From IMG/VR virus record IMGVR_UViG_2875535316_000001, positions 1 to 64,000 of that record: a stretch of 64,000 nt of DNA. One strand, written 5' to 3'. The stretch comes from a virus (lineage: Duplodnaviria; Caudoviricetes). The notes under the pieces were generated by a model. It had not been told where the DNA came from. It saw only the letters and a program-made list of their open reading frames with translations, and did no database searches. Positions within the stretch are counted from its first letter, which is position 1. Each line of letters starts with the position of its first letter. Below are positions 11,194-42,983 of the stretch, piece by piece. The position numbers and the translations under genes are program-made.

Positions 11194-12873
11194 TTATCCG
11201 GCGATAACGTTCTTGATGGTGATAAGGGCGCAGCCCAGAGCCGATTGCTTGTGCGGGTTCACCTCGGTCAGGTCGCGCTTGTACAGCGCCGCGCCCGACT
11301 TGAGGTCCTGGCCGACGGCGAGCGGAATCAGGGTGAGCGGTACCGCGTCCGACAAGACGATCGGGTTACGCGCCACCTGGGCGGAGCGGCCGACACAGAG
11401 GATCTCGATATCGGTGTCGGTTTCCTCGACGACGTACGGGTCGTAGTACACGTCGTACTTGCCCTTGTACTTACCGACACGCCAGATACCGGCCTTCGCC
11501 GACACGCCAGAGGACACAAAGTCGGTGGAATCCATCGACAGGAACTGCGACATGCCGATATCGCCCACGTACCAAATGTTCAGACCGAACTCCATGGTCT
11601 GGTTGGCGACTTCCTGGTCGACCTTGGCCGCGAACGAACCGAAGTCGCGCCACACGGCTGCACGGGTCTTGCTGACCAGCTGGGCGCCGGCGTCGAAGTC
11701 GTACACGCGGTGGGTGCGCTTGGCGATACGCTTGAGCTTGCGCAGGGATGCGATATAGCGCTCGTTGGCAGCCTGGGTGCGGGCAGCCTGCACAGCGATG
11801 GTCAGACCGTCGGCGCCCAGTTCCGACTGAGTCTGGGAACGAGCATCGGGGGTGATCTGCATCAGCACACGGCTTGGGGCGCAGTAGAGGCTCCAGCTTT
11901 GGGCTTTGGTGTTGATATGCGGGGTCAGGTCCGGCTTACGCTCGAAGTCGACAAACGCCTGCACTTCCGGGTAGGCGGAGGCCGGCAGCGCCGGGTTGAA
12001 GGTCAGATTGCCTTCGCCGGTGTCGATGTTCACGTTACCCGTGATGGAGTACGAGGTGCCGCCATCGCTGACGTACTGGCCAGCCAGCTGGTTGGTGCTG
12101 GTGCCGTTGTCGACTTCGATAGCGCACGGCATACCGTCAATGAATACGCGGGTACGACCACGCAGGATTGGCACTTGCGCACCTTGACCGCCGATACGGG
12201 CAGTTACCTTGAACGTGCCGGTCAGGCGATCGCCAGCCATGGCCACGTCCAGAATACGCTCGGAACGGGTGTAGGCCTGGCCGCCGCCGGTACCGTCCAG
12301 GATCATGCCCTGGGTGTAGCCGCCGAAGTCAGAACCGGTGACCGCGCTGATGATTGCCAGCTTCGATTCGTTGGAGTTCAGGTCGGAAGGCAGGTAGGCG
12401 CCGAACGGCATGCCCTCGGCCAGGCCGCCGGTGATGGCCACCGCGATACGGTTGGGCTGGTGGGACAGTGGGGTCGACTGGTTGTTGCTGCTGATGCTGT
12501 CCAGGGTGTAGCCATCGGGCAACACTTTGGTGCTGGCGCCGTCAGCAACGTTCTCGGCCTGGGAGATAACTGCGTCGATCAGTGCCGCGTCAGGCATGTG
12601 GCCGTTGCGGTATTGGTAGCGGGCGATGCCATCCAGCAGGCTGTGCACGGCCTGGCCGCGCGCGGCGTCACCGTCGATCTTGTCGAGCAGGGCCGCCATA
12701 CGGGCAGGCAGGAGCTTGGTGGCATCGGCCACGGATTCTTTGATTACACTGACAGCGGCGCCGCTGGTGCTGTCGAGCATGTTTCCATCTTCACGGGCCG
12801 CGCCCACCAGGGCGTCAATTTTGGCCTCGGTGTCTTCAAGACCTCGGCCGGGCGCGTAAATGTGTCGTGCCAT
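11194..12873 (-). CDS. Major capsid protein (P1 gp23-like)
   Basis: 559 aa from ATG 12873 with GAGG RBS; strongly biased codons; internal Ig-like insertion (SITGNVNIDTGEGNLTFNPALP); first gene of the 23-22-21-pmgG block. Confidence 0.85.
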   Translation of the reverse strand: MARHIYAPGRGLEDTEAKIDALVGAAREDGNMLDSTSGAAVSVIKESVADATKLLPARMAALLDKIDGDAARGQAVHSLLDGIARYQYRNGHMPDAALIDAVISQAENVADGASTKVLPDGYTLDSISSNNQSTPLSHQPNRIAVAITGGLAEGMPFGAYLPSDLNSNESKLAIISAVTGSDFGGYTQGMILDGTGGGQAYTRSERILDVAMAGDRLTGTFKVTARIGGQGAQVPILRGRTRVFIDGMPCAIEVDNGTSTNQLAGQYVSDGGTSYSITGNVNIDTGEGNLTFNPALPASAYPEVQAFVDFERKPDLTPHINTKAQSWSLYCAPSRVLMQITPDARSQTQSELGADGLTIAVQAARTQAANERYIASLRKLKRIAKRTHRVYDFDAGAQLVSKTRAAVWRDFGSFAAKVDQEVANQTMEFGLNIWYVGDIGMSQFLSMDSTDFVSSGVSAKAGIWRVGKYKGKYDVYYDPYVVEETDTDIEILCVGRSAQVARNPIVLSDAVPLTLIPLAVGQDLKSGAALYKRDLTEVNPHKQSALGCALITIKNVIAG

Positions 12874-12931
12874 TGGTTTTACCTCGTTGCTGAATAAGGG
12901 CTGCGCCCGTAGTGGTGGCGTTTCAGCAACG

Positions 12932-12974
12932 ATGGTAAGTGTCAAAAAAACCCCGAATTTCGGGGGGTTTGCGC
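12932..12974 (-). promoter_or_regulatory. Late-type promoter for capsid operon, overlapping an intrinsic terminator
   Basis: GCGCAAA-N30-TACCAT; the spacer holds CCCCGAAATTCGGGG followed by T7. Confidence 0.75.
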
Positions 12975-12982
12975 CGATTTTG

Positions 12983-15532
12983 CTATTTGCGGAGCACGAT
13001 CAAGCGGGCGTTTGCGCTGGTTTGCGCCAGCAGTGCGTTGTCATTGAATGTGCCCGCCTCCAGGGGCTCAACATCGGCGCTGTGCTGCTCCAGCCATTCC
13101 CGGAAAGCCACCGCTTTCTGGTCCTTGCCGAAAAACACGCCCTCCCCTGCGATCGCCGCCAGGGTGCCGCCGCCGGCCAGCATCCCGAACGCTCGCATGA
13201 TGTGAGCGGCGTCCTGGCGGTTGCTGAATGGCGGGTTCATCACGATGGCGTCATACGGCTTATCAGGCGTGAAGCCGTCAAAGTCATGGTCAACCACGGT
13301 GTATCCCTTGGCGGTCAGAATGTCGCGCAGCTGGCTCGATATCTCGATCACGTCGACCTGGCCACCCTCGGCCTTTGCGGCGTCAGCCAGGTTGCCGTTG
13401 CCGGCGCTCGGCTCGAGGACGCGCATACCCTCCCGGATGTTGGCCAGTCTCGCCATGCGCTGGGCGACGTGTGCCGGCGTTGGGAAGAAGTCGATGCCAA
13501 CCTTCTGCCCAACAATGGCCCGCTCGGCCTTTTTCACCGGGTCTTCTTGCGCTTTCTCCACCAGGTGGGGAATCAGCGCCTCGACCGCGGCCACCAGGCT
13601 CGGCTGGTCAGTGATGCCCATGCGCGCCAGGCGCTCAGCCCGGGCGATGCTCTCCATGGGATCTGCCAAGTCCCAGTTCTCTTTCACAGCCTTGAGCACG
13701 GCTGCGCCCTTGCGTGTGAGGGCAATGGCGGCCGCATCCAGGTCGAAACGCTCAGGGCCATTGCCAAGCTTGGCCAGCGCGGCGATCAACCGGCTGTTGC
13801 CTGTGGGCGCCTTCTTGGCCATGGTTTCGGCGGCGCGGCTGTAACGGTTGCTCCACGACCAGGGGCGCGGGAATACCAGGTACTTGAGGTCATTGTCTTC
13901 AAATGGGCGCCCGCGGCGTGCATACGCTTGCTGGCCGGCCAGCTTGCTATCTGCGTCCGACATGGCGCGGCGCATGATCCGCTGCAGCTCGTCGAGCTGG
14001 GCCCGACTGGATAGCCTGGCCAGCGCGCCGCCGGCGCCAGCCTCAATCGCGTCCGCCACGCGGTGCAGGGTCTTCGCCACGGCCTTGTTCGCCTCGGCGT
14101 TCTCGATCGCGTAGCCAGCCTCTCGCGCCCGCTTGGCGGTGTTGGTCTTACGGTCGGCGTTGAGGCTGGAATCAGCCTTTTCCAGCGCGCTATTGGCCAC
14201 CTGGCGCAGTTTCTCCACCTGGGTGGCCAGCGCCTGCTTGGCACGTTCCTCGGCCTGGCGCTGTGCGGTGGCCACCGCCTCGGCTTGCTGCTCGGGCGTC
14301 ATCACCACCGGCGCCGGCGCGGCCTGGATGTGCGAGGTGTCGCCACCCAGGTGCTTTTCCCGGATGAAGTAGCCGCCGTTCATCTTCCAGGTGTACGGGT
14401 CGATCGCCTTGGCGTCAGCCAGGCTCAGGTCCGTGCGGATGATGCCGCGTAGCACTTTGCCCCGCTTGGTGGTGTACTCGACGATATCCGGTACCGGCGC
14501 TGGGTCAGGGGCCGCTGCAGGGGTCCGCTGGGCGCGCACACGCTCCGACAGGTGCGTCTCGGCATACTCACGCAGGTACGCCAGATACTCGTCCCGGTTG
14601 TTGGACACGCGCCCGCCCACCTTGACCTCAAACTCACCGGCGCGCATGCCGGCCCAGCCCAGAAACGCGCTGTTGCCGGCCTCGAAGGTTGGTAGTTCCT
14701 CCAGAGTGTCGAGATAGGCCTGATACACGGGGTTTTCAGCCACACCGGCGCCGATGGTCTTGGCGAACTCGGCGCGCTGCTCGGCTTCGCGTTCATCGCG
14801 GATGCGCTCCACCTCTGCTGCCTCGGCCGCGGCCTGCTGGGCAGCTTCCTGGCGCTCTCGCTCCGGTGCTGCAGCGCGTTCAGCGGCGTCCGCTTCGTTC
14901 TGGGCCCTGCGGTCAGCGATTGCCTGTTGCTCGTCCTGGTACGCCTGCACGTCATCCGCGCCAGCGTCCTCACCGAACACAGCCCGGAACTTCTCGGGGC
15001 CCCACTCCCGCGCCATGATCCCCTTGAGGTCCTCGAGGTCGCGCGCCACCCCCGATGCCTTGCCTTCATAGGTCACAGAGGCGCCACCGCCCATGGCGCC
15101 GTGCTCGTAGACGACGGCGCCGCTGGCCAGCTGGTGCGCGCTGGTGGGCACGAACTCGGCCAGGCGCGCCTTGGCCTTGGGGAACACGACTCCATCGGCG
15201 GTCTGGGTGACCTTGAGCCCGTCGAACGTGGCCGCGGCATAGGCTGCCAGCGCCACCGGGTCACCGGTAACCAGGACAGAACCGTTTTTCTGCACCAGCA
15301 GGCCGGTGGCCATCGCCAGGGGCCCAAGGGGAACCGGTGCGGCCGGTACCGCGGCCGGCGCCGGCGACTGCAGGAGGATGCTGCGAATCTCCAAGGCCCG
15401 GGCGCTGGCCTGGACCTGCGCCAGCGGCGCCAGCGCGCCCGACTCGAGTTGTGCGCGCACGGTCAGGAGCTCGGCGCTCAGGCGCACACGCTCGATCGAC
15501 GACAGCGCGGCCGATGGGAGTTGCTCAGTCAT
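12983..15532 (-). CDS. Polyvalent protein with C-terminal amino-(N6A)-DNA methyltransferase domain (DarB-related, no SNF2 helicase)
   Basis: FFPTP, VLEPSAGNG (SAM binding) and VMNPPF (catalytic) motifs. Confidence 0.85.
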   Translation of the reverse strand: MTEQLPSAALSSIERVRLSAELLTVRAQLESGALAPLAQVQASARALEIRSILLQSPAPAAVPAAPVPLGPLAMATGLLVQKNGSVLVTGDPVALAAYAAATFDGLKVTQTADGVVFPKAKARLAEFVPTSAHQLASGAVVYEHGAMGGGASVTYEGKASGVARDLEDLKGIMAREWGPEKFRAVFGEDAGADDVQAYQDEQQAIADRRAQNEADAAERAAAPERERQEAAQQAAAEAAEVERIRDEREAEQRAEFAKTIGAGVAENPVYQAYLDTLEELPTFEAGNSAFLGWAGMRAGEFEVKVGGRVSNNRDEYLAYLREYAETHLSERVRAQRTPAAAPDPAPVPDIVEYTTKRGKVLRGIIRTDLSLADAKAIDPYTWKMNGGYFIREKHLGGDTSHIQAAPAPVVMTPEQQAEAVATAQRQAEERAKQALATQVEKLRQVANSALEKADSSLNADRKTNTAKRAREAGYAIENAEANKAVAKTLHRVADAIEAGAGGALARLSSRAQLDELQRIMRRAMSDADSKLAGQQAYARRGRPFEDNDLKYLVFPRPWSWSNRYSRAAETMAKKAPTGNSRLIAALAKLGNGPERFDLDAAAIALTRKGAAVLKAVKENWDLADPMESIARAERLARMGITDQPSLVAAVEALIPHLVEKAQEDPVKKAERAIVGQKVGIDFFPTPAHVAQRMARLANIREGMRVLEPSAGNGNLADAAKAEGGQVDVIEISSQLRDILTAKGYTVVDHDFDGFTPDKPYDAIVMNPPFSNRQDAAHIMRAFGMLAGGGTLAAIAGEGVFFGKDQKAVAFREWLEQHSADVEPLEAGTFNDNALLAQTSANARLIVLRK

Positions 15533-17849
15533 GTTTCACCCCAAAAATGGAATCCAGCAAGGCGGTATTGCTCATTGCCTTCTCGAAGGCCTTTTCATCG
15601 CGCAGCGCCTTGAACACCTGGTCAAAGGCGGCATTGATGCGGGTACGTTCTTCACCCTCGGGATAGGGCTTAAATGGGGCGCCCAGCTCGGGCTGGTAGT
15701 GGTGCTTGTTGTCGGCAAGGCTGCTCAGGTAGTCGTTTTTGCGGCCCATTTCGGCCAGGCGGTCTTCCAGATAGCTCTGGAACGCCCGGGCGGCCATTTC
15801 AAAGGGTTCTGACCAGTATTTACCCGTCACCCCGTCATCGAGCTTTTGCGCCTCCAGGTAGAAGTTCGAGACGCTGGCGCCCGACTTCACCTGCACCTCT
15901 GTGGCGCCCTCTGGGGAGTAGTAAGCCGCGGCAATCTCGCGCCATTGCTTCTTCTGCTTGAGGTAGGGCTTCGACTGCAGGTTCCTGAATGCCGCGTCGA
16001 CCGCCAGCACCGCGTCGTGGACGTTGCCGGCGTTCTTGATATCCAGCGCCACACCGCGCAGGGCTCGGCCGTCCAGGTTGAACTGGGCTTTCTCAAGGGC
16101 CCGGGGCGGCAGCTTGATCGTCTCCACCAGGCGCACGCCGCCGGTGGTCAGGGTGTCCTTGAGTGTCTTGAAGGCTTCGCGAATCGCACCTGGTGGCATC
16201 AGGTCGGGGTTTGCACTGGCGTACTCGTTCCATTCCCCCTCTTCACCGCGCAGCACGCCCGGCAGGATGTTGTCCAGAGCGTGGTAATGCTCATGCCCCA
16301 GCGCCCCGCCGCCGTTCATCTTGGTCATGTTGATCACGCGCTCGATCGGCTCATAGTGCGCCATCGCCGCGCCCTTCCCGCCTACGCCCCGGGCGCCAAA
16401 CGCCATGGCCAGGCGCCCGCCGAAGCTCAGGTGGTTCTCGTCGATGCCCAGCACGTCGGCCATGTCCTGCATGGCGCCAGCGGTCTGTTCTACGTGCCAC
16501 TTAGCGCTAACAAAGTCACCCAGCACCCAGTTACCGGACTGCACCGCCCGGAATCCGCACAGGCGCTCCAGGTCCTTGGTCGAGGCCACCGCGACCGGCC
16601 GGCCGCCAATCCGCTCGAACTGCTCAACCACCTTGAGCGTGAAGCTGATCTTCTTTTTGCTGGCGCGCTTGGGGGCGGACTTCTCTTTGGTGGTCCACTC
16701 CCAGGAAGCGGGCTCGCCGTTCTTGGCGTTGGCCACATGGCCGGCGAAGCTGTCCGAGCCTTCGCCCGTGCGCCGGTGCCGGTACAGGGTGGCCTTGATG
16801 AAGCGTTCGCCCAGGGCCTGCCAGGCCTTCGACTCGGTAGTCTGCAGGTTGCGGGCCTTGGCCACGTCGACGATATCGCCCATGTCGGCCGATGTGGTGC
16901 TGCGCTGCTGGCGAATGGACTCGTCTTCGTCCTTGGTGGCGGCGATTTCGTCGCCCCATGCCTTGTGGGCGGCGTCATAGGCGGCGCCAGCGTCGGTCAC
17001 GGCCTGCTCGTGGGCGGGCTCGATCTTCCAGCCGCGCCGGGTGCGGTTCGCCAGGGCATGCTTGGCGGCGTTGTGGGCGGCACCGGCGGCCGTCATGGCG
17101 TCATACAGCACCTGGCGCCCTTCACTGATCGCCCGGGCCCGGGTGCGCAAGTCCTCGAGCTGGGCAGCCAGGGCGCGGTAGCGCTCGGATTCGTCGGCGT
17201 CCAGACGGGTACCCAGCAGTTCCTCACCGATTTCCGTCAGGGTGCTGGTGACCTCGGCAACGGTCTTGGCGCTCTCCAGGCGCGTCCTGATCGTTTCAAT
17301 GCCCAAGGCGTAGCTCTTACGGGCCTCGGGGCTGTTCTCGCCTGGCATGGCGCCAATGGAGGCGTACAGCCGGTCAATGAGGTAGCCGGCCTGTGGCTGC
17401 ATGCCGCCGGCCTGCAGGGCCTCCCAATCGACCTGGCCGAATAGGTTCGACTTCTTGATCAGCTCGCGCGCCTGGCGCGGGTTTTCCTCGATAGCCTTAA
17501 AGTCGATATCGCTGATGCGCAGCAGCTGGCCAGCATCACGGGCGGCCTTGATCGATGCTGCAGCCTGCTCCTTTCGGGAGCCGGAGATATAGCCGGTGTC
17601 CTTGTAGCGGTAGTTTTCGCTGTTCGGGTCGTCGCTCAGGCCATCATCGGCCGCGGCTTGGGCGGCCTGCTCGGCGTCGATCGTCGCTGGAGCCTGGCGC
17701 ACCACGCCGCCCAGCTGGGTATACAGCGCCAGCGCTTCGGTGGTCACGCGGGCTTGTTGAATGGGGTTTAACGTACCGGATTGCAGCTGGCCACGCAGGT
17801 CAAGCAGCTTGGTAGTCAATCGGGCTTGTTCGAGGGGATGTAGAGCCAT
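15525..17849 (-). CDS. Polyvalent protein with LPD1-type C-terminal region and HExxH motif (DdrB-related)
   Basis: YKDTGYISGSRKE, AMAFGARG..AHYEP, LGHEHYHALD, YWSEPFEMAARAFQSY, PYPEGEER. Confidence 0.8.
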   Translation of the reverse strand: MALHPLEQARLTTKLLDLRGQLQSGTLNPIQQARVTTEALALYTQLGGVVRQAPATIDAEQAAQAAADDGLSDDPNSENYRYKDTGYISGSRKEQAAASIKAARDAGQLLRISDIDFKAIEENPRQARELIKKSNLFGQVDWEALQAGGMQPQAGYLIDRLYASIGAMPGENSPEARKSYALGIETIRTRLESAKTVAEVTSTLTEIGEELLGTRLDADESERYRALAAQLEDLRTRARAISEGRQVLYDAMTAAGAAHNAAKHALANRTRRGWKIEPAHEQAVTDAGAAYDAAHKAWGDEIAATKDEDESIRQQRSTTSADMGDIVDVAKARNLQTTESKAWQALGERFIKATLYRHRRTGEGSDSFAGHVANAKNGEPASWEWTTKEKSAPKRASKKKISFTLKVVEQFERIGGRPVAVASTKDLERLCGFRAVQSGNWVLGDFVSAKWHVEQTAGAMQDMADVLGIDENHLSFGGRLAMAFGARGVGGKGAAMAHYEPIERVINMTKMNGGGALGHEHYHALDNILPGVLRGEEGEWNEYASANPDLMPPGAIREAFKTLKDTLTTGGVRLVETIKLPPRALEKAQFNLDGRALRGVALDIKNAGNVHDAVLAVDAAFRNLQSKPYLKQKKQWREIAAAYYSPEGATEVQVKSGASVSNFYLEAQKLDDGVTGKYWSEPFEMAARAFQSYLEDRLAEMGRKNDYLSSLADNKHHYQPELGAPFKPYPEGEERTRINAAFDQVFKALRDEKAFEKAMSNTALLDSIFGVKHD

Positions 17850-21467: not shown

Positions 21468-24400
21468 CTACAGCGCTTCGGCAGTCTTGCGCAGGGCGTA
21501 ATCGCGGTATGCGTTGGATGCCTCGCCAAACAGGTCTTTCAGTTCGGCCTCGCCCCACTTGGCGTAGATATCTTCGAGTCGCGCCAGCACCTCAGAAGGG
21601 CTGCCCAGGTCGGCGGTACCTTCAATCAGGCTATCGAGAAACGCCTTCGCTGCTTTCAATTGATCATCCTCGTCTGGCTCCGGGGGTGTCGGTTGCGGGG
21701 CAGCGGCTGGCGCCGGTGCAGGGGCTGAGAACATATCCCCTTGCTCGATGGCAAACAAGCCCTCGCCGTACTCCTGCTCAAGCTTGCGGTTGGCCGCTCC
21801 CACGATATCGGTGAAGCTGGCCGGGGCATCGCCAAACAGTCCGGCTGTCTGCTTGCGGGCGTTCTCGCTCTCCACGAACTGCGCCATGGCCTTGAACGCG
21901 GTACCCATGCGCTTGGCGCTGCGGTTGTTCTGGTGGATGAACATGGCCATGGCCGCGACGGCAGGGTCGGTACCGCCGAACATATCGCCCTGGCGCAGGA
22001 ACTCGTCCAGGCCCAGCCCGGAGTCCTTCGCCTGGCGCAGCACGTTGGTGGCGCCGATGATGGCGTTTACCGCTTCCTGGTTAAGGGACAGCTCCACAGA
22101 GTCGGTGACCTTGCCGCCGGCTTCCTCGGTGCCCACCAGGTCGTGTTCCTTGGCCCGCATGAAGTCGGGCGCTGCACTGTTGAGCGCAGCCACGATGTTG
22201 GCAATCTCGGGCTTGGCCACGTCGGCCGTCATTTCCAGCAGGCGGTCGTCCGAGTAGGCGCCAGCAAACAGCGCGGCCTGCAGGCGGCTGATCAGGCTGC
22301 TGGTGGGCTTGCCCTCAGTGGTCAGGTACTGCGCCGCCTCGGCATCGCCCAGGGACTGCAGGAACGCCGCCACAAAGTCACGGTTAGCCGCGCTGTTGAG
22401 GTCACCGTCTGCCAGCTTGGCCAGCATGGCGGCATCAAGGCGCCGGGCATCGCTACGGGCCTTTTCGGTGGCCGTCTGCGCCAGCTTGTCGTCCTGGTTG
22501 GCCTCCACAGCGAACGCCACGCGGTCCACGGCGGTTTTACGCACCCGCACCAGCACCGGCGCTTTCAGGCGCTGGATCTTGGCCACGTCGACGCCGAAGT
22601 ACTCCGCGTTTTCCACCAGCCATTCGCGGTACTCGTCGGCGGCGCCAATGCGATAGGCCTCACGCACGGCCATGGCGCGCCCGTTGCCCGACTCCACCAC
22701 CCGGTCAGGGCCGACAATGGGAGCGCCGCTATCGGCGCGCTGGGTGCGTCCCAGGCTGTCAGGATCAAGGTTGCGGGCGGTCTTCTGCACCCAGGCCTGC
22801 GACGTGCTGCGGGCGCGATCGCGCGGCTGAATCTCCGCTGGGTAGTCCGGGTTCGCGGTGCCGTCCGTTTCGTGGCTGATTACCAGGTTGCTGGCGTCGA
22901 TGATCTTGAACCCGGTGACCAGCTTGGTGCCCTTGGCCGTCTTGACGGTGTTGTCGCGGCCTTCTGGCGCGATTTCGCCGGTGTCGTCATCACCAGCTGG
23001 CGCATTGCGTAGCGCCGCCTCAGCGTCTGCCTGGGCCTTTTGCTCTGCCAGCTCGGCCAGATGCGCCGCCAGCATGGCTTCCTCTTCTGGGGTCTGCGGC
23101 TGTACAGCGGATGCCGCCTGCACCGCGGCTGCGGCCTCTTGGGCGGTCTTGCCCTCGGCGTGCATCTTGCCCAGCAGGCCCTCGTGGGGCATGGCGATCG
23201 CGTCAGCGTCACCGCGGCCGATATCCAGCAACGCCGCCAAGGCATCGAGCACGTCGCCTTCCCATTCCTGATACGGCTGCTGGCCTGGCGGCTCAGCTGC
23301 AGCAGGTTGAGGTTTCGGTACCCGCGCAGGATCGGCCTTCGCCGCCGCCAGTTGGGCGGTCAGGCTCTCGATCTGCTTGTCCAGGTCGGCCAGCTCGCCG
23401 GTTTTCTCGGCCTCGGCCGCCTTCAAGGCCTCGACCTGGGCGTCACGCTCGGCCTTGTTGGTGTTGGCCTGGATAAACTTGGCGCTGTTCTTCTCCACCA
23501 GTTTCATGACCCGTCGCGCCACCTCACGCGGGTTCAGGTCCTGGCCCTTTTCGGGCGCCACCGTAATGGTGATGTCCTTTTTGTTCAGCACCCACTTCCA
23601 GCTCACCATCTCATCGGTAGGGGTCAGCTTGTTCGGCGTGGTGTCGGGGTTATGGAAGAACACGCTGACGCTCTGGCCATCGTCCATCAGGAACAGCATG
23701 GCCAGCTGGGTGGTGCCGCGGTTCTTGAAGGGCTTGCTGACCTCGACGCTCTCGGCCTTCACGCCGGTGGCGGCCATCTGCATCACGCGCAGCAGCTGAT
23801 TGGCCTTGCGCTCGAACTGTTGCACCTCGATCACCATGGCATCGAGCATGGCGCCGTCGTCAGTACTCAAGTACTCCACCAGGTCGGCCATGTTGGCAGC
23901 GTCCATCATCTGGCCGCCCTGGTCGTTGCGGCGCAGGCCGGCGATCACGTCGCCCAGGGTGTCGCCTACTGGCATGCGCTTGTCATCCCAGCGCACGAAT
24001 ACGTCGGAGGTGTTCAAATCTTCGTCCTTCTTCCACAGGTCCACAGGCTCAAGGCGCACGCTCAGGTCGCCATGTTTCAGCCAGAACTTGAATTGCTTGA
24101 TGCTGCAGGGCGTCAGGCTGCCCAGCCCGGTCCAGCCCTTTTCGTAGCTGTTCATGTAGGCGTCACGCGCCGATTGCTCGTCGGCAAAGCCCAGCAGCAC
24201 CTTGTGTTCGTCAAAGGTGCCGTCGCGCTTCACCTGGTTGACGACAAACACGCGCAGGCTCTCGGGCACGGGCCCCACAAACACGTCTACCGCGTCACCG
24301 TCGGCGCCTACGGTGCCGTTGATATAGCCGTAGTGCGCCATGCACAGAACTGACCAGGGCGCGCCATCGGTCTTGCCGCGGCGAGGCTGGAACATGGGCG

Positions 24401-24551
24401 TTTCAATGGTGATGGGCATGCCATGCAGGCGCGTGGCGCCCTTGGCATAGTTCCCGGCGCGGATTTGCTCGGGGGTGGGGGTGGCGCGGGAGCCGGCGCC
24501 GAACGCGCCAGCGTGGGCCGCGCTCTGTAGTGCTGCAAACGTGTCTGCCAT
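21468..24551 (-). CDS. DarA-like polyvalent fusion: inorganic pyrophosphatase-like, DarA N-domain, DdrB-type ParB-like domain, DarA C-domain
   Basis: HYGYINGTVGADGDAVDVF..FDEHKVLLGF (InPase); DDGQSVSVFFH..LNKKDIT..EKNSAKF (DarA); QPRDR..GAPIV..VESGNGR (ParB-like). Confidence 0.85.
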   Translation of the reverse strand: MADTFAALQSAAHAGAFGAGSRATPTPEQIRAGNYAKGATRLHGMPITIETPMFQPRRGKTDGAPWSVLCMAHYGYINGTVGADGDAVDVFVGPVPESLRVFVVNQVKRDGTFDEHKVLLGFADEQSARDAYMNSYEKGWTGLGSLTPCSIKQFKFWLKHGDLSVRLEPVDLWKKDEDLNTSDVFVRWDDKRMPVGDTLGDVIAGLRRNDQGGQMMDAANMADLVEYLSTDDGAMLDAMVIEVQQFERKANQLLRVMQMAATGVKAESVEVSKPFKNRGTTQLAMLFLMDDGQSVSVFFHNPDTTPNKLTPTDEMVSWKWVLNKKDITITVAPEKGQDLNPREVARRVMKLVEKNSAKFIQANTNKAERDAQVEALKAAEAEKTGELADLDKQIESLTAQLAAAKADPARVPKPQPAAAEPPGQQPYQEWEGDVLDALAALLDIGRGDADAIAMPHEGLLGKMHAEGKTAQEAAAAVQAASAVQPQTPEEEAMLAAHLAELAEQKAQADAEAALRNAPAGDDDTGEIAPEGRDNTVKTAKGTKLVTGFKIIDASNLVISHETDGTANPDYPAEIQPRDRARSTSQAWVQKTARNLDPDSLGRTQRADSGAPIVGPDRVVESGNGRAMAVREAYRIGAADEYREWLVENAEYFGVDVAKIQRLKAPVLVRVRKTAVDRVAFAVEANQDDKLAQTATEKARSDARRLDAAMLAKLADGDLNSAANRDFVAAFLQSLGDAEAAQYLTTEGKPTSSLISRLQAALFAGAYSDDRLLEMTADVAKPEIANIVAALNSAAPDFMRAKEHDLVGTEEAGGKVTDSVELSLNQEAVNAIIGATNVLRQAKDSGLGLDEFLRQGDMFGGTDPAVAAMAMFIHQNNRSAKRMGTAFKAMAQFVESENARKQTAGLFGDAPASFTDIVGAANRKLEQEYGEGLFAIEQGDMFSAPAPAPAAAPQPTPPEPDEDDQLKAAKAFLDSLIEGTADLGSPSEVLARLEDIYAKWGEAELKDLFGEASNAYRDYALRKTAEAL

Positions 24552-24577
24552 GGCTGTCGCCTCGGATGAAAGCACAC

Positions 24578-24620
24578 ACGATATAGCGCCAGCACGGGCG
24601 CTCCTGGGCGCGCTTTCCGC
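24578..24620 (-). promoter_or_regulatory. Late-type promoter for the DarA-like gene
   Basis: GCGGAAA-N30-TATCGT. Confidence 0.6.
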
Positions 24621-24663
24621 CGATCGGCGGGCACAAAAAAGGCGCCTGGTTGGCGCCTTGTGC

Positions 24664-24999
24664 TCAGACCTGTTCTGTCGAGCTCCACGAAATTGTTTTA
24701 CCCCGGAATGGTACTTCCAAATCGTTACCAACCACCTGCTGGGGTCTCAAAGGGTTGGTAGGCATATTGCCAATGATTTTGCCAACGATCTGGCTGGTTA
24801 TCTCAAGCTCGCCATGGTTCACGATGTTGCGGCATACCTGGCCAGACACCACTGCCTTGCCGCCAGGCTCAATGATTAACCCGCCAGCCAACTGGTCATT
24901 AGCGATCAGCAAGCCGCCAGCTTTCACGTAGGTGGTTCCAGTGACTTGGCCAGAAGTCTCATGCCGGCCGGTGACAATCAAATCGCCTTTATGCTGCAT
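24664..24999 (-). CDS. Small Gly/Val/Ile beta-repeat protein (bactofilin-like?)
   Basis: Repeating x-G-x-[VLI] units; lower GC; bracketed by hairpin terminators at about 24633-24660 and 25040-25069. Confidence 0.55.
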   Translation of the reverse strand: MQHKGDLIVTGRHETSGQVTGTTYVKAGGLLIANDQLAGGLIIEPGGKAVVSGQVCRNIVNHGELEITSQIVGKIIGNMPTNPLRPQQVVGNDLEVPFRGKTISWSSTEQV

Positions 25000-25866: not shown

Positions 25867-26328
25867 ATGAAGATCATGGTAACGGTCGCAGGCTACGGCG
25901 GCGCGGGCTCAGCCCCTATTACATTGGCTGCAACGCTCGATGACGCCACCGCCGTGATGACGGTGCTCAAGGAAATTAAGTACAGGGATAAACCAGACAA
26001 GGGGTATGCCTTCGTGACCAACCTCAAGCTTCCGGCCTATGACTGCTTGTTCACTGAGGAACACCTGCAGGGCGCAATCCTGTCGTACCGGGAATCCGAA
26101 GGCCTGGGCAGCTTTGTGATGCACGACAACATGATGCGACACCGCCCGCGCATCGAAACGGACGGCATCGATCCAAAGGGCCAGAAGTACCGGCTACCTG
26201 GTGATATCAACAACGGGGAGATAGCGGTGCTGGCGCTGGCCTACTTCCAGTCGCGCCAGCGCTCTGTGGGTGCTCTCGCAGGCCAAATAGACCGCGTTAC
26301 TAGCATGTACGACATTCTGTCGTTTTAG
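25867..26328 (+). CDS. Hypothetical protein; only plus-strand phage gene inside the structural region
   Basis: 153-aa ORF with AAGGGG RBS behind an AT-rich divergent promoter region; stop overlaps the hdf-like stop. Confidence 0.7.
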   Translation: MKIMVTVAGYGGAGSAPITLAATLDDATAVMTVLKEIKYRDKPDKGYAFVTNLKLPAYDCLFTEEHLQGAILSYRESEGLGSFVMHDNMMRHRPRIETDGIDPKGQKYRLPGDINNGEIAVLALAYFQSRQRSVGALAGQIDRVTSMYDILSF

Positions 26329-27896
26329 TCGTCGCTGGTGGCGTAGGGCTCGCCCATTGAGTCGTACCCGGCATCATCCAGCGCGTTGATGCCCTTGCCG
26401 GTTATCAGGTATAGCCCTGACTCTGCCTCCACCATTCCCAGCGCCAGCAGCTCGGCCAGTGCTTCCTGGTCTGCAATCTCGCTAGTTTCAGCCGCGGATA
26501 CCGCCGCGATCGCCACCAGCTGCGCCAGGCCGGAATCACTGATAGCCACAGGCGCACTGTCCAGCATGGCGATCGCCCGACGGTAGGCGTCAGCATTGCG
26601 CTTCTGCAGGGCGGCCTGATCGAAGTTGCCCGCCTCGATGTTGATCGGGTAATTCGTCTCCATCACATCCAGCGCCATGCGCAGCACCGCCACAGCCTCA
26701 GCGTTGGCCGAGCTGTCGAGCATGGCCGGGTCAGTCCCCACCACATCGCGCGCATCCACGTAGGCAACCGCCAGCGACATGGCCGGCCATTCTGGCTGGG
26801 GCTCTTTGAAGGCTTCGAGCGAATCCACCAGCAACTGTTGCTTGGTGCTGTCGAGCAGGTCCTCTGCGGTGGCCACCGACACCGAATCAACGTCGTGCAG
26901 GACCGCATACATTTGCTGATCGCCCACAACCTCAGTGGGCACCGCCAGCGTGTAGTGCACCTTCGCAGCCCGGAAGCTGGCGCCGATGACCTTGGCTGCA
27001 ATGTCCATCTTGTCGCCATCCTGGCCAAGCCCCAGGAACACGTCGGCGCCGATCTGGAAGCGAGACGGCACCTCCATTGGGCCTACCTGGTCGACATACG
27101 CCTGATTGACCAGCTTGAAACCCAGCCAAGACATTGGCTCAGGGCCTGCAGGCATGGCTGGCGCCGGCACGCTGTCGAGCATGGCCAGGGCCTCGCGACC
27201 CTTGTCGGTCAGAACGTTGTCGCGCTGGTCTTCGGGCATGCCCTCCACATAGCGATCGACATAGCCCAGCCCCACCAGCACGTCACGGGCGTCCTTGCTC
27301 GATACCTGGCCGTCTTCAAGGTAGCCCTTCTTGCCCAGGGCGCGGAGCACATCGCGCTCCCATTCGCCAAGCTCTGGCGCGCTGCTGGCGCCGCCCGTGC
27401 TGTCGGTCATGGCACCCAGTTGTTGCTGCAGGTCGGCCACGGTCGCTTTGCGCTCAGCGATCTGCCCGTCCAGCTCGGCCACGCGCTGCTGCAGCGCCTC
27501 GGCCATCTTCGGCTTGGGAGTGCTCATGCCCGGCGGGAGCGCCACCTTGACCCGCGCCAGCGACTTCTGGAACGCGGCCTGGTTCTTCTCCGCCGCGCTC
27601 GCCAGCTCGGCCACGGCCTTGGCCATGTCGTCATGGTTCTTAATGGGCACCACAGACTTGTTCAGCACGGCCTGGTAAATATCGCCGGTGCTGATGACGC
27701 GCAGGGTGATCAGCTGCCCGCTGGCCAGCGTCAGGGTGGCCTCGCGGTAGGTGATGCTGTTGCTGCGCCGTGGCTTGTCGATGAACTCGGTGGCCACCAC
27801 CGGCTGACCGGCGCGCACCATCCACTGCTTGACCTTTTTCAGCGCGCCTTCGGCGGCCGATGCGCTGGAAAAGTCCAGCGCGTTCGTAACTGGCAT
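26325..27896 (-). CDS. Hdf-like (DarA N-domain paralog) head protein with long modular C-terminal extension
   Basis: LASGQLITLRVISTGDIYQAVLNKSVVPIK..AEKNQAAFQK N-domain; 523 aa from ATG 27896. Confidence 0.75.
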   Translation of the reverse strand: MPVTNALDFSSASAAEGALKKVKQWMVRAGQPVVATEFIDKPRRSNSITYREATLTLASGQLITLRVISTGDIYQAVLNKSVVPIKNHDDMAKAVAELASAAEKNQAAFQKSLARVKVALPPGMSTPKPKMAEALQQRVAELDGQIAERKATVADLQQQLGAMTDSTGGASSAPELGEWERDVLRALGKKGYLEDGQVSSKDARDVLVGLGYVDRYVEGMPEDQRDNVLTDKGREALAMLDSVPAPAMPAGPEPMSWLGFKLVNQAYVDQVGPMEVPSRFQIGADVFLGLGQDGDKMDIAAKVIGASFRAAKVHYTLAVPTEVVGDQQMYAVLHDVDSVSVATAEDLLDSTKQQLLVDSLEAFKEPQPEWPAMSLAVAYVDARDVVGTDPAMLDSSANAEAVAVLRMALDVMETNYPINIEAGNFDQAALQKRNADAYRRAIAMLDSAPVAISDSGLAQLVAIAAVSAAETSEIADQEALAELLALGMVEAESGLYLITGKGINALDDAGYDSMGEPYATSDD

Positions 27897-33856: not shown

Positions 33857-34786
33857 CTACCAGCGCCGTTCAGAGCCTTCTTCCCAGGCATCGGCTTCGA
33901 TAAAGCAGTTGCGCATGTCGGCTTCCTGGCTGATCTCGGTCAGCAAGTCATGCACGGTCTTGTCCAGCTCATCGTCGCTCCGATACGGAATGGCCAGTTC
34001 GTAGTTGCCCGACTCCAGCCGTTTCATACTGTAGGGCTCCAAGCAGTAGCGCTCGATATTTTCCTTGGCCCGTTTCCGGCCGCGAACGAACTTGCTGTTG
34101 TTCACCACCGCCAGGCGCAGCGTGACGGTGGCCACCTGCTCGGCGGCGGGCTCTGCCGGCGACGCGACATTGCGTTGCTGACCTCGCGGCTGGGCGCTCT
34201 TCTGGTGTGCGCCGATCTCAACACCACGATGGCGCAGGTAGCTGTACAGCGTGCTCTTGGAGATGTGTAACTTCTCGCCGATGGCGCTGACGCTCAGGCG
34301 GCCCTCGCGGTACAGCGTCTCGGCCGCCATGGAGGTGGCCTCGGCCTTGGCTGGGAGGCCCTTGGGACGGCCACCGATCCGGCCCCGCGCCCGCGCGGCC
34401 GACAAACCCGCCTGAGTCCGCTCGCGGATCAGCTCGCGCTCGAACTCGGCCAGCGAGGCAAACAGGTTGAACACCAAGCGACCTTGGGCGTGGGTGGTGT
34501 CGATTGGGTCATTCAGGCTCTGCAAGCCGACCTTGCGCTCTGCCAGCTCGCCGACCAGCTCGACCAGGTGTTTGAGGGAGCGCCCGAGGCGATCCAGCTT
34601 CCAGATCACCACGGTGTCGCCCGCTCGAACATGGGCTAGCAACTTGTCCAACTCCGGCCGGGCGCTTTTCGCGCCGCTGGCGATGTCTTGATAGATGCGT
34701 TCGCACCCGGCCTGTTTCAGGGCATCGACCTGGAGGTCGGCGTTCTGATCCCGAGTGCTCACCCGCGCATAACCGATCTTCATCAA
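33857..34786 (-). CDS. tnpR: Serine resolvase with long C-terminal extension
   Basis: IGYARVST, VWKLDRLGRS-like motif, GGRP, HTH; start could be 34783. Confidence 0.95.
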   Translation of the reverse strand: MMKIGYARVSTRDQNADLQVDALKQAGCERIYQDIASGAKSARPELDKLLAHVRAGDTVVIWKLDRLGRSLKHLVELVGELAERKVGLQSLNDPIDTTHAQGRLVFNLFASLAEFERELIRERTQAGLSAARARGRIGGRPKGLPAKAEATSMAAETLYREGRLSVSAIGEKLHISKSTLYSYLRHRGVEIGAHQKSAQPRGQQRNVASPAEPAAEQVATVTLRLAVVNNSKFVRGRKRAKENIERYCLEPYSMKRLESGNYELAIPYRSDDELDKTVHDLLTEISQEADMRNCFIEADAWEEGSERRW

Positions 34787-35637: not shown

Positions 35638-38634
35638 ATGCCGGTCGGTTTTCTGACCCAGGAGCAACGCGACGGTTTTGGCCGCTATGTCGATGCCCCC
35701 AGTCGTGAGGAGCTGGAACGCTACTTCCACCTGAGCGACGACGACCACAAAATCCTCCTACCGCTGCGCGGCGAGCACAACCGCCTTGGCTACGCCACCC
35801 AACTGACCAGCATCCGCTACCTGGGCACTTTTCCCGACGACTTTTCAGCCGTCCCCCAAGAGGTGCTGCAAGCGCTCAGTCGCCAGTTAGGCATTACCGA
35901 TCCAACTTGTATCCTGGCCTATGCCGAAACCCGCCAACGTCAACGTCATGCCGCCGAGATTCAGGAGCGTTACGGCTATCGGGTGTTTGCTGATTCCAGC
36001 GTCGGCTTTCGACTTGCCCGCTGGCTGTATGCGCTCTGTTGGACAGGGACAGATCGTCCTGGCGAGTTGTTCAATCGGGCGACGACCTGGTTGCTGACGC
36101 ACAAGGTTTTACTGCCCGGCGTCACCGTTCTGGAACGGTTCATCGCCCAACTGCGCAGCCGGGTCGAAGAACGCCTCTGGCTAACCCTTGGCCGCAGTGT
36201 GAGCGAGGCGCAACGGCAGCAGCTACAGGACTTGCTGCTGGTCGCCGAAGGCAACCGCAGTTCCCGGCTGGATCAACTGCGCTCCGGCCCGGTGATGGTC
36301 AGTGGCCCCGCACTGATTCGGGCGCTGCGCCGGCTTGATGACGTGCGCGGCATCGGCATCGCCTTGCCAGCGGCGGCGCACATCCCGCCCAGCCGTATCG
36401 CGGCCCTGGCTCGCTTCGCCAACACCGCCAAGGTCACGGCGATCAACCGGCTGCCGGCGTCGCGGCGGATGGCGACACTGGTGGCGTTCGCCCTGTGCCT
36501 GGAGGCCACCGCGCACGACGACGCCCTGGAGGTCCTGGAAGCGCTGTTACGCGACCTGTTCAGCAACGCGGAGAAGGCCGACAAGAAAGCCCGCATGCGC
36601 AGCCTGAAAGACCTGGATCGCTCGGCGGCGACGCTCGCCGCCGCGTGCAAGGTCGTGCTGGACAGCTCAATCAGCGATGACAACGTGCGCGCCCGGCTGT
36701 TCAACGACCTGCCGAGGGCCTCGCTGGAGAAAGCCCTGGAAGATGTCAATGCGCTGATCCGCCCGGTTGACGATGTGTATTTTCTCGCCCTGGAGGCGCG
36801 CTACCGCAGTGTGCGCCGTTTCCTGCCCGACCTGCTCAAGCACATCCGCTTCGGCTTCAGCCCGGCCGGCAAAGGCGTGGTCGCCGGCCTGGATTGGTTG
36901 CAGCTGAACCTGCCCCGCCGGAAACCGGAGGATGACGCGCCGCAGGAGATCGTGGCCAAGGCTTGGCAGAAGCACATTACCCGCGAGGATGGCTCCCTCG
37001 ACATGGGCGCCTATGTGTTCTGCACGCTCGATGCGCTGCGCACGGCCCTGCGCCGGCGCGACGTGTTCGTCTCGCCCAGTTGGCGCTATGCCGACCCGCG
37101 TCTCGGCCTGCTCGACGGTGCCGAATGGCTGGCGGCGCGGCCGATCATCTGCCGCTCGCTGGGCCTGACCATTGACGCCGGCACCACCTTGGATGCGCTG
37201 AGCGCCGAGTTGGATGCGACCTGGCAGGCGGTCGCGGCCCGCCTACCCGACAACCCCGCGATCCAGCTGAGCGAGAACGCCGAGGGCAAGACCGAGCTCT
37301 CGCTCGGCACACTGGACAAGCTGGAGGAGCCGAACTCGCTGCTGCAACTGCGAGCAGCCGTGGCTGATCTGATGCCGCGTGTCGATCTGCCGGAAATCCT
37401 CTTGGAAATCGCCGCTCGCACCGGCTTCGCCGAGGCCTTCACCCATGTGTCCGAGCGCAATGCGCGGGCCGACAACCTGGTCACCAGCCTCTGCGCGGTG
37501 CTGCTGGGTGGGGCCTGCAACACCGGCCTGGAGCCGCTGATCCGCACCGACAATCAGGCGCTACGCCGCGACCGGCTGTCCTGGGTCAGCCAGAACTATA
37601 TCCGTGACGACACGCTGTCAGTGGCAAACGCCATTCTGGTGGGGGCGCAGAGCCAACTGGAGCTGGCCCAGGTCTGGGGCGGCGGCGAGGTCGCCTCCGC
37701 CGATGGCATGCGCTTCGTGGTACCGGTGCGCACCGTGCATGCTGGCCCCAACCCGAAGTATTTCGGCACCGGCCGGGGCGTCACCTGGTACAACTTGATT
37801 TCCGATCAGTTCTCCGGCCTCAACGCCATCACCGTGCCCGGCACCCTGCGCGACAGCCTGGTGCTGCTGGCCGTGGTGCTGGAACAGCAGACCGAGTTGC
37901 AGCCGACGCAGATCATGACCGACACCGGGGCCTACAGCGATGTGGTGTTTGGGCTGTTCCGCCTGCTCGGCTACCACTTCAGCCCGCGCCTGGCCGACGT
38001 CGGCGGTACCCGTTTCTGGCGCACGCGCCCGGAGGCGGATTACGGCAAACTCAACGGCCTGGCCCGGCAGTCGGTCAAGCTCGATCTGATCGCCGAGCAC
38101 TGGGACGACCTGCTACGCCTGGCCGGCTCGCTCAAGCTCGGCCGAGTGCCGGCCACCGGCATCATGCGCACCCTGCAAACAGGGGATCGTCCCACCCGCC
38201 TGGCCCAGGCGCTGGCTGAGTTCGGTCGCATCGAGAAGACCTTGCACACCCTGACCTACATCGACGACGAGTCCAAGCGCCGCGCCACCCTGACCCAGCT
38301 GAACCGGGGCGAAGGCCGCCACAGCCTGGCCCGCGCCGTGTTCCACGGCAAACGCGGCGAGCTGCGCCAGCGCTACCGCGAAGGCCAGGAGGACCAGCTC
38401 GGCGCCCTCGGCCTGGTGGTGAACATCATCGTGCTGTGGAACACCCTCTACATGACGGCGGCCGTAGAACGGCTCAGGCAGCACGGCTACCCGGTGCTGG
38501 AGGAGGATGTCGCGCGGCTCTCGCCACTGATCCACGAGCACATCAACATGCTGGGCCGTTACTCCTTCGCGGTGCCGGAAGAGGTTACCCGCGGCGAACT
38601 GCGGCCGCTGCGCAATCCGGACGACGACCAGTAG
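35638..38634 (+). CDS. tnpA: Tn3-family transposase
   Basis: 998 aa; ASADGMRF, IMTDTGAY, QLNRGE DDE motifs. Confidence 0.97.
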   Translation: MPVGFLTQEQRDGFGRYVDAPSREELERYFHLSDDDHKILLPLRGEHNRLGYATQLTSIRYLGTFPDDFSAVPQEVLQALSRQLGITDPTCILAYAETRQRQRHAAEIQERYGYRVFADSSVGFRLARWLYALCWTGTDRPGELFNRATTWLLTHKVLLPGVTVLERFIAQLRSRVEERLWLTLGRSVSEAQRQQLQDLLLVAEGNRSSRLDQLRSGPVMVSGPALIRALRRLDDVRGIGIALPAAAHIPPSRIAALARFANTAKVTAINRLPASRRMATLVAFALCLEATAHDDALEVLEALLRDLFSNAEKADKKARMRSLKDLDRSAATLAAACKVVLDSSISDDNVRARLFNDLPRASLEKALEDVNALIRPVDDVYFLALEARYRSVRRFLPDLLKHIRFGFSPAGKGVVAGLDWLQLNLPRRKPEDDAPQEIVAKAWQKHITREDGSLDMGAYVFCTLDALRTALRRRDVFVSPSWRYADPRLGLLDGAEWLAARPIICRSLGLTIDAGTTLDALSAELDATWQAVAARLPDNPAIQLSENAEGKTELSLGTLDKLEEPNSLLQLRAAVADLMPRVDLPEILLEIAARTGFAEAFTHVSERNARADNLVTSLCAVLLGGACNTGLEPLIRTDNQALRRDRLSWVSQNYIRDDTLSVANAILVGAQSQLELAQVWGGGEVASADGMRFVVPVRTVHAGPNPKYFGTGRGVTWYNLISDQFSGLNAITVPGTLRDSLVLLAVVLEQQTELQPTQIMTDTGAYSDVVFGLFRLLGYHFSPRLADVGGTRFWRTRPEADYGKLNGLARQSVKLDLIAEHWDDLLRLAGSLKLGRVPATGIMRTLQTGDRPTRLAQALAEFGRIEKTLHTLTYIDDESKRRATLTQLNRGEGRHSLARAVFHGKRGELRQRYREGQEDQLGALGLVVNIIVLWNTLYMTAAVERLRQHGYPVLEEDVARLSPLIHEHINMLGRYSFAVPEEVTRGELRPLRNPDDDQ

Positions 38635-39107: not shown

Positions 39108-39344
39108 TCACGGTCGCTTCCGAAAGGCCTGCAATGCCGCTCGCAGGAAGAGGATGAAGAAAACCGCCAGCACGAGCGTCGCGAGGCTCCACTGCTCGCT
39201 GACGAACGCGCCGGCCGCTGTCCCCGAAAGCAGCAATGCCAGCACCGGCAGATGGCAAGGGCAGGTGAGCGCGGCGAGCACGCCCCAGGTGTAAGCACGC
39301 CAGCGGAAGACCTTGCTTGACTCAACGTGATCGGCGTTACGCAT
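39108..39344 (-). CDS. merE: Mercury transporter MerE
   Basis: LTCPCHLP motif. Confidence 0.93.
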
Positions 39345-39699
39345 AGGCAGAACCTTCGCCGGCGCAATGAGTCAGCCCGGCCAGCTGGGTTGCCACTGCG
39401 GCTAAGGCCGCCTGCCGTGCCGTGACTAGCCGGAGCAGGCACTCGACGCAGCCGATCAAGTCGGCGCCATCGTCCGCATCGAGCGCCCGGCAGAGCCGTG
39501 CCAATTCGTCGAGCCCGATACCAGACTCGAAGGCGGCGCGCACGAAGCGCAGACGCGCCAGGGACCGCTCATCGAAAATGCCGTAACCGCTCTCCGTGCG
39601 CCGCGCGGGGTGCAGCAAGCCACGCAGCACATAGTCGCGCACCACATGCACGCTGACGCCCGCGTCCTCGGCCAGTCTGGATATGGTGTAGGCATTCAT
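39337..39699 (-). CDS. merD: Mercury co-regulator MerD
   Basis: [23 protein letters not shown]. Confidence 0.93.
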
Positions 39700-40115
39700 C
39701 ACCGACACTCCCGGTCTTCCCCGCAAACTAGGGCGCTCAGATATTTCCTTCCGGCTAGGCGTTCAGGTAGCCAGATGAGCAATGGCGTAACCCCTAGTGC
39801 CAGGAGCAACCACAGCCGGGAGTGATACTCGCCGTTTGGGGCAAACCCATAAGCCAGCAGCGCACCCAGCGCGAGCATCAGGAAATACGGCCCGGTGATG
39901 TAGCAGTGAAGGCGGCGACAGCGCGCGGCGTTGACCAGGCAGGCGCCGCCCATCACGAGTAGCGCGGCGCTCGCTGCCAGGAACAACGCAGGGCGTCGAT
40001 CCGCCAGAACAAGCGCTATGGTCGCCACGACGGCAGGCAGCCCCCATAAGCTGATTACCTGCCAGGTCTTGCGCAGGCTGTCGCGACTGCCGAGATCGCT
40101 TGCCGTGTCGTTCAT
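39699..40115 (-). CDS. Four-TM membrane protein with Cys/His cluster between merA and merD
   Basis: [22 protein letters not shown]; GAGG RBS; abuts merD start. Confidence 0.7.
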
Positions 40116-40135: not shown

Positions 40136-41830
<1,695 letters not shown>

Positions 41831-42917: not shown

Positions 42918-42952
42918 GCATTTCTCCTTTCGAGCATGTGAGCGATGGTTTA

Positions 42953-42983
42953 AGGTTACTTCCGTAGTCAAGTACGGAGTCAA
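42953..42983 (-). promoter_or_regulatory. PmerT promoter / MerR operator
   Basis: TTGACT-N19-TAACCT with the dyad TCCGTA..TACGGA in the spacer. Confidence 0.9.

Follow-up and report, generated by a model that had tools for sequence, protein, structure and literature searches.

The window is a stretch of 64,000 nucleotides (nt), positions 1 to 64,000 of the IMG/VR virus record IMGVR_UViG_2875535316_000001, a single-contig record of 94,696 bp with a G+C content of 62%. The element in question is a gene for an Hdf-like polyprotein located at 26325..27896 on the minus strand. It encodes 523 amino acids (aa) and a stop codon, and its product is referred to as P0001. An earlier reading of the letters alone (the sequence-only reading) had given the same coordinates, which were correct. 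The strand is minus, and the plus-strand frame over the interval is closed by many stops. The start of P0001 is backed by the homologue consensus MPxTNxLDFSS and supported by a GGGGG run 8-9 nt 5' of the ATG.

P0001 begins with a domain of about 160 aa of the Hdf/DarA_N type, as had been proposed before any search was made. Residues 16-106 matched Pfam DarA_N (PF18788) with an E value of 1.3e-14 and 54.5 bits against a gathering cut-off of 27. Residues 14-162 matched the PHROG family 'Hdf-like antirestriction' (phrog_1620, E 1.6e-34). By BLASTP, residues 7-160 aligned to residues 12-168 of P1 Hdf (29% identity, E 4e-11), an alignment which covers the helix following the domain. The sole significant sequence match of P0001 to a solved structure was Hdf in an entry of the P1 head (PDB 9ukm_H, E 1.1e-8). 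P0001 differs from the single-domain form of about 200 aa seen in P1 Hdf (203 aa, without a cargo tail) in having 358 extra residues and five motif sites, and consists of an Hdf unit and five site-separated modules.

The motif copies start at residues 162 (AMTDS), 238 (AMLDS), 346 (DLLDS), 391 (AMLDS) and 443 (AMLDS), and all five were found where the sequence-only reading had placed them. Four copies of M[LTMIV]DS were seen in P0001 compared to 0.033 expected from composition (Poisson probability of at least four, 4.6e-8). The top count in 20,000 shuffles of P0001 was two, and two or more motifs occurred in 0.06% of them. The five-motif observation is confirmed and chance is excluded as its cause. 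LVD↓S at residues 356-359 was considered as a sixth site and rejected; it is probably not a site because it is not conserved in homologues. The modules and sites are listed below from the N-terminus, with an arrow at the presumed cut.

27402..27896, minus strand: module 1, aa 1-165, DarA_N/Hdf domain and long helix, basic, pI 9.6
27399..27413, minus strand: site 1, AMTD↓S, aa 162-166, at the end of helix 129-165, then low-confidence linker 163-172
27174..27401, minus strand: module 2, aa 166-241, acidic winged-helix-like domain, optional among homologues
27171..27185, minus strand: site 2, AMLD↓S, aa 238-242, at the end of helix 231-240, then disordered 243-253
26850..27173, minus strand: module 3, aa 242-349, beta-rich domain, optional among homologues
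26847..26861, minus strand: site 3, DLLD↓S, aa 346-350, a weaker variant, where homologues have EAMLDS, DILLDS or DMLDS
26715..26849, minus strand: module 4, aa 350-394, linker and short helical piece, conserved from about aa 359-375
26712..26726, minus strand: site 4, AMLD↓S, aa 391-395, D394 invariant
26559..26714, minus strand: module 5, aa 395-446, conserved 52-aa helical hairpin, family phrog_3376
26556..26570, minus strand: site 5, AMLD↓S, aa 443-447
26328..26558, minus strand: module 6, aa 447-523, conserved, very acidic (net -13) winged-helix-like domain

Module 1 is presumed to be the anchor to capsid and DNA. All pieces C-terminal to it are acidic, with pI values of 4.0-4.8. Among 59 aligned homologues M163 and D165 of site 1 are invariant, as are M444, L445, D446 and S447 of site 5.

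The motif is shared with two other head proteins encoded in the window.

49275..50216, minus strand: P1-Pro-like prohead protease (28% identity to P1 Pro, E 3e-21)
11194..12945, minus strand: major capsid protein, a P1 gp23 homologue (E 1e-18)

The window was first scanned in six frames, and xM[LTMIV]DS was counted genome-wide in 115 likely genes (28,093 aa). Nine copies were seen compared to 0.59 expected. All nine fall in the protease tail (four), the N-terminal propeptide of the capsid protein (one) and P0001 (four). The catalytic domain of the protease covers about aa 1-150, and H55 and S124/S125 are invariant in 18 sequences. In its structural model the N-terminal domain is confident, and order in the tail is poor. 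Three AMLDS and one QMLDS are located in this C-terminal tail at nt 49722..49736, 49659..49673, 49473..49487 and 49404..49418. A search of PDB sequences with this open reading frame (ORF) gave no match, and a search of the genome contigs with the single protease sequence gave 43 pattern matches, of which none was confirmed. The capsid propeptide contains NMLD↓S at nt 12769..12783. The capsid protein also contains YTLD↓S at residues 146-150 (nt 12496..12510), near the position of P1 E120↓S121 by an offset estimate from the alignment of the protein body.

P1 gp23 is cut between E120 and S121, as determined by Edman degradation, and this is the sole mapped cut in this phage group (PMC9024508). 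The P1 cut reads NKAMLE↓SVAAEM, and the window word AMLD↓S is the same with Asp for Glu. The residue before the cut is Glu in P1 and Asp throughout here. The first AMLD↓S of the protease aligns with GMFE↓S of P1 Pro, and thus protease and capsid protein switch jointly between Asp and Glu from one phage group to the other.

A position matrix was also applied. Its training set comprised 69 sites (60 distinct), all from the proteases and capsid proteins of relatives, and no Hdf sites. The top seven in the genome were the four protease sites, capsid NMLD↓S, one site of the Hdf-like protein (rank 5) and a site in the ORF at 7720..8469 (rank 6); the top protease and capsid matches are the window's own homologues of the training sites. 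The remaining sites of the Hdf-like protein ranked 9, 10, 18 and 25. In the related clade three to four strict sites were present in the protease of 13 of the 15 records with a protease match. The exceptions had two (G008) and one (G016), plus variants with G, N or T after Asp. One N-terminal site was found in the capsid protein of all 15 records with a capsid match. The Hdf-like proteins had two to four strict sites in 15 of 17 cases, and those of G005 and G016 had one plus variants. A distant clade (G014, G015, G020, G021) lacks M-L-D-S at most sites, although the capsid protein of G021 has IMLD↓S. These four instead carry a hydrophobic residue, any residue, L or F, then D↓S or D↓A in both protease and capsid protein, and their capsid proteins have GVFD↓S and GTFD↓S sites. 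G014 and G015 carry a plain Hdf of 160 aa.

The protease of T4, gp21, is specific for an acidic residue followed by Ser. SPN3US gp245 cuts after AXE with Ser preferred next (PMC10052503). Given its likeness to the mapped P1 cut and the pattern shared by protease, capsid protein and P0001, the motif very probably marks where the P1-Pro-like prohead protease cleaves.

The motif copies are also alike at the DNA level. A stretch of 15-16 identical bases is found in three of them (aa 239 and 392 of the Hdf-like protein and aa 183 of the protease), and other copies differ by one or two bases. The repeat could in principle be a DNA feature, with the shared 15-16-nt GCCATGCTCGACAGC acting as recombination microhomology and having no role in the protein. 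This is highly improbable. The copies mix CTG with CTC, GAC with GAT and AGC with AGT, the nucleotide identity would be expected from preferred codons for A-M-L-D-S, and the amino acid motif is conserved in homologues of 45-98% identity. The capsid protein and the protease, which show no module shuffling, carry it as well.

An AlphaFold2 model of P0001 was built from the 59-sequence alignment. The mean pLDDT was 76 and the pTM 0.38, and a high pLDDT with a low pTM fits independent domains on linkers. Two stretches, residues 163-172 and 243-253, had a confidence below 50. Of the five motifs, four cap the C-terminus of a helix before a coil, and two of those coils are low-confidence linkers. Site 4 lies inside a short helix at residues 390-396. 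The model bears out the expectation of separate folds for the modules rather than one continuous fold. The proposal of two winged-helix modules was likewise backed. Modules 166-241 and 447-523 are both modelled as helix-helix-strand-strand-helix, and Foldseek with the P0001 model returned P1 head chains first (9vz0, 9ukm) and then MarR-family winged helices. Modules 2 and 6 were considered as mutual duplicates and this was rejected, as BLAST shows no sequence similarity between them.

Pfam and PHROG searches with the whole protein and with each module detected no enzyme domain or zincin-like peptidase in P0001. In the searches by module the only family recovered was phrog_3376, with module 5 (a 55-position profile, E 3e-4), and hints of winged helices stayed below threshold. 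ESM Atlas gave feature matches below 0.9 only, and folds at a TM of about 0.5 that were Tudor/Agenet-like for module 3 and IclR/HTH_45-like for module 6; these are leads only.

The position of the motifs in the model bears on a further explanation, in which they are left uncleaved and the protein stays whole. The motif would then be a docking or helix-capping tag for the capsid interior or the protease, repeated for head targeting. P1 Hdf is reported uncut (PMC12810830), and four of the five motifs are at a helix C-terminus. The four copies in the protease lie in its C-terminal tail, the region that in HK97 reportedly targets the protease to the capsid. This explanation is improbable. The pattern of an acidic residue followed by Ser is that of the proteases T4 gp21 and SPN3US gp245 described above, and the free-standing homologues of the modules end at the motif position. 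The only mapped site in the phage group is cut precisely at AMLE↓S (PMC9024508).

The family of P0001 was represented by 120 homologues. At least one strict motif was present in 118 and at least two in 106, and the motif amino acids are kept across homologues of 45-98% identity. In two homologues (P0120, P0121) V, A, Q or T replaces the usual Met. The common plan is an anchor of about 165 aa, a variable middle and then about 36, 52 and 77 aa. Classes were assigned by module-by-module BLAST, with members with or without module 4 counted together; single-linkage clustering of segments merged most modules into one cluster and was too coarse for module families. Modules 2 and 3 occurred in all four combinations. 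Both were present in 20 homologues, module 2 only in 32, module 3 only in 15 and neither in 49, with five partial forms. P0009, which is 96% identical over the aligned part, lacks module 3. P0011 lacks module 2 and P0026 lacks both.

The alignment boundaries lie close to the motifs. When P0001 was compared to its family, internal BLAST alignments ended 0-15 aa after a site in 83 of 100 cases (18% by chance) and started between -5 and +20 aa from a site in 80 of 98 (28% by chance). Module matches ended within 5 aa of a strict site or of the C-terminus in 324 of 392 cases. The sequence-only reading had asked whether modules are gained or lost exactly at the motifs. The breakpoints do cluster by the motifs, but are offset from the cut point by a few residues. 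It had also described the cargo modules as swappable; modules 2 and 3 and some alternative inserts do vary, but the last three modules are conserved in nearly all 120 homologues.

Relatives of the modules are also found outside this family. In ten viral loci module 5 stands alone as a protein of about 53-56 aa, whose end coincides with the position of the motif in P0001. A Pro homologue was not found in three of the five searched records with a free-standing module 5. Residues 166-523 were searched against 1.84 billion representative proteins and gave 60 matches. Some were whole small proteins, consisting of module 3 alone (106-115 aa; P0137, P0143, P0170, P0173) or of module 5 alone (53-72 aa; P0155, P0166, P0167, P0160, P0172). 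Larger proteins bear module 3 N-terminally or internally. Ten of these larger proteins were scanned, nine with module 3 and one with module 5 and DarA_N (P0129), and LPD3, LPD1 or ddrB-ParB, domains typical of polyvalent proteins, was present in six. P0001 is made up of several unrelated domains shared combinatorially with other such proteins, which is one feature of polyvalent proteins. The relationship to these proteins speaks for modules that act in the host.

Two proviruses of the distant clade encode large proteins of this kind. G020 (L091, G020:C1:45000-54500) encodes a 1789-aa polyvalent protein with InPase at the N-terminus and DarA_N. It contains a module-2-like winged helix and then a module-5-like hairpin, flanked by AMD↓S, ALD↓D and ALD↓S. 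G021 (L092) encodes a DarA_N polyvalent protein with an open frame of 1341 aa.

The favoured explanation is that P0001 is a head-targeted polyprotein which is cut at the motifs by the phage's own prohead protease, with the pieces being injected. This is considered probable. The N-terminal 165-residue Hdf/DarA_N unit would dock on the inner capsid wall beside the DNA, as suggested by its homology with P1 Hdf, which sits with DarA at the penton-hexon junctions of the capsid. It would be followed by an acidic winged helix, a beta-domain, a short helical piece, the 52-aa hairpin and a second acidic winged helix. The sequence x-M/L-L/T-D↓S at each junction would be the recognition site, with the cut after Asp by extension from the mapped P1 site. 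Inside the procapsid the protease would trim the capsid propeptide and free itself from its own tail at four sites. The same protease would cut P0001 into up to six pieces of 5-18 kDa. The basic Hdf piece would stay on the capsid wall and the DNA, as in P1. The acidic pieces would be kept in the head and exit with the DNA at infection as small early-acting factors, which is the least certain step. In the course of evolution middle modules would be gained or lost at the cut sites. In P1, contracted heads that no longer contain DNA are reported to lack the DarA-Hdf pairs (PMC12810830). The sequence-only reading had arrived at a similar polyprotein, and the computation supports that interpretation in part.

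A number of points weigh against this polyprotein explanation. All steps beyond the presence of the motifs are inferred. The sequence-only reading had drawn on processing of head proteins in P1, and this stands for DarA, which is processed, but not for Hdf, which is reported unprocessed (PMC12810830) and also lacks such a motif. Site 3 is weak in P0001, with L for M and a matrix rank of 25, although M is often present there in homologues. Site 4 lies within a helix run (residues 375-446) that could pack as one unit. The junctions in homologues are a few residues off the scissile bond, and the join in P0009 is four residues past it. Pfam finds no protease family in ORF 49275..50216. The best fold match of the protease is T4 gp21 (5jbl, three chains) and is weak, with a probability of 0.96, an E value of 0.026 and a TM of 0.27 (query length) or 0.46-0.48 (target length); herpesvirus proteases are placed lower in the same list. 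Pfam, PHROG and ESM Atlas matches gave no function for any module.

The acidity of all the cut-off pieces would also suit peptides expelled as the DNA enters. In the main rival explanation the sites are cut and the C-terminal modules are a disposable, scaffold-like or space-filling core expelled around packaging, like T4 gp22 or a capsid propeptide. P1-like phages are described as having no separate scaffold gene (PMC9024508, PMC12810830), and head size is reported to be shifted in P1 darA and hdf mutants (PMC12810830). In SPN3US long propeptides are removed through several cuts (PMC10052503). Every cut piece of P0001 is acidic, and weak scaffold-like matches to a coiled coil were obtained (phrog_73, E 0.012; Pfam Phage_scaffold, E 0.98). 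The modules are, however, modelled as compact folded domains with no coiled coils. Modules 2 and 3 are dispensable among close relatives, as in P0009 without module 3. Modules 3 and 5 recur in LPD1, LPD3 and ddrB-ParB polyvalent proteins and as free genes in phages without a Pro homologue, a recurrence which suits host-acting factors better than scaffolding. A disposable core is regarded as unlikely, if less so than an uncut motif.

The head-targeted polyprotein was compared to known systems. The likeness to P1 lies in homologous portal, Pro and Sit proteins in the same order, capsid and Hdf homologues, the DarA_N anchor and a large DarA_N protein in the same gene block as the Hdf-like gene. 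P1 DarA (L001 27904..29823) itself contains LMTE42↓S43 and DLLE68↓A69. Residue 70 is the first DarA residue modelled in the cryo-EM structure of the P1 head (PMC12810830). DLLE68↓A69 directly precedes this residue and may be the processing site of P1 DarA.

T4, phiKZ and SPN3US load proteins into the procapsid that are cut after an acidic residue by an assemblin-type prohead protease (gp21, gp175/gp245). The T4 internal proteins (IPI-III, Alt) carry a capsid-targeting sequence that is removed by gp21. In this group too the protease and capsid protein share the motif, and several cuts per substrate are possible (PMC10052503). Their proteins lose an N-terminal targeting peptide and yield one mature C-terminal product, whereas here the folded N-terminal anchor is probably kept, the C-terminal part would be divided into several mini-proteins, and the modules vary.

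Polyvalent proteins (Iyer et al. 2017, PMC5512222) are similar in being DarA_N multi-module phage proteins with rapid shuffling of modules. P0001 differs in its small size (523 aa) and in the lack of any detected enzymatic domain. It also differs in the proposed processing, which here would be by the prohead protease at a linear motif, compared to the built-in zincin-like peptidase proposed for polyvalent proteins (PMC5512222). The polyproteins of picornaviruses and retroviral Gag-Pol share the principle of one frame, several proteins, a virus-coded protease and a repeated short motif. There is no evolutionary link to these. The phage procapsid would be the place of cutting here, which would yield accessory rather than core proteins. 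No prohead-protease-delimited Hdf polyprotein was described in the titles or abstract openings of the papers listed by full-text searches.

A broader suggestion is made tentatively and with chances judged below even. The pattern of a hydrophobic residue, L, then D or E↓S may be a universal perforation between cargo modules, such that anything placed between sites behind a DarA_N anchor is packaged, freed and injected. The variable acidic modules would be unrecognised anti-defence proteins, and the large DarA_N polyvalent proteins and LLE68↓A69 of P1 DarA would be explained in the same way. If correct, P0001 would be a natural and evolvable multi-cargo delivery cassette. The favoured polyprotein explanation would in itself supply a sequence rule for cuts by P1-type prohead proteases, for which one site is mapped in P1, and would explain the division of DarA_N head proteins and polyvalent proteins into working units. 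The small, fast-evolving, head-delivered proteins of Pseudomonas phage-plasmids would be highlighted as anti-defence candidates. It also suggests a simple way in which a single gene could load several foreign proteins into the head of a transducing phage. What would be new compared to the T4, SPN3US and polyvalent systems is the kept anchor, the yield of up to six mini-proteins from one small gene and the use of the prohead protease as the processor.

The wider setting of the gene is P1-like. The portal (phrog_1497), the Pro homologue, a Sit-like protein of 1209 aa and a BplA-like baseplate protein follow each other in an order equal to prt-pro and sit-bplA of P1. The source names of homologues point to Pseudomonas, and their contigs are mostly 80-90 kb with some labelled plasmid. 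A megablast of 20 kb against the phage collection gave no match. The Sit-like protein (45646..49275, minus strand), a tape-measure/transglycosylase, has SNLD↓S at Asp 56 with a matrix score of 8.7, which may be due to chance.

A second DarA_N protein lies in the same region as the Hdf-like gene.

21468..24731, minus strand: InPase, DarA_N and ddrB-ParB polyvalent protein, 1087 aa, about 1.6 kb downstream of the Hdf-like gene

It has QMMD↓A (Asp 277) and AMLD↓A (Asp 297) between InPase and DarA_N, and from its sequence it is possibly another substrate of the protease. The cargo would lie N-terminal to the DarA_N anchor. AMLDA coincides with the opening positions of this domain's profile and so may instead belong to the fold.

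The ORF at 7720..8469 (minus strand) encodes a 249-aa protein (phrog_1053) between PmgG-like and tail-sheath genes. Its body is acidic, and about 60 aa at the C-terminus form a very basic tail. Three motif-like sites are present, NMLD↓N (Asp 36), DMLD↓A (Asp 168) and AMMD↓A (Asp 185). This protein is probably a further protease substrate, which would release a basic peptide.

Two large DarB-like/polyvalent proteins of 849 and 774 aa, encoded at 12983..17849 on the minus strand, adjoin the capsid gene and match methyltransferase-type PHROG families. The 774-aa protein has an LLDS-type variant, ALLD↓S, at its extreme C-terminus.

A Tn3-family mercury-resistance transposon is located inside the phage at 33857..43351, between tail and baseplate genes. 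The following genes were assigned to it.

33857..34786, minus strand: transposon resolvase
35638..38634, plus strand: Tn3 transposase
39337..39726, minus strand: MerR-type regulator
40136..41818, minus strand: MerA
41831..42262, minus strand: MerC
42567..42983, minus strand: MerT

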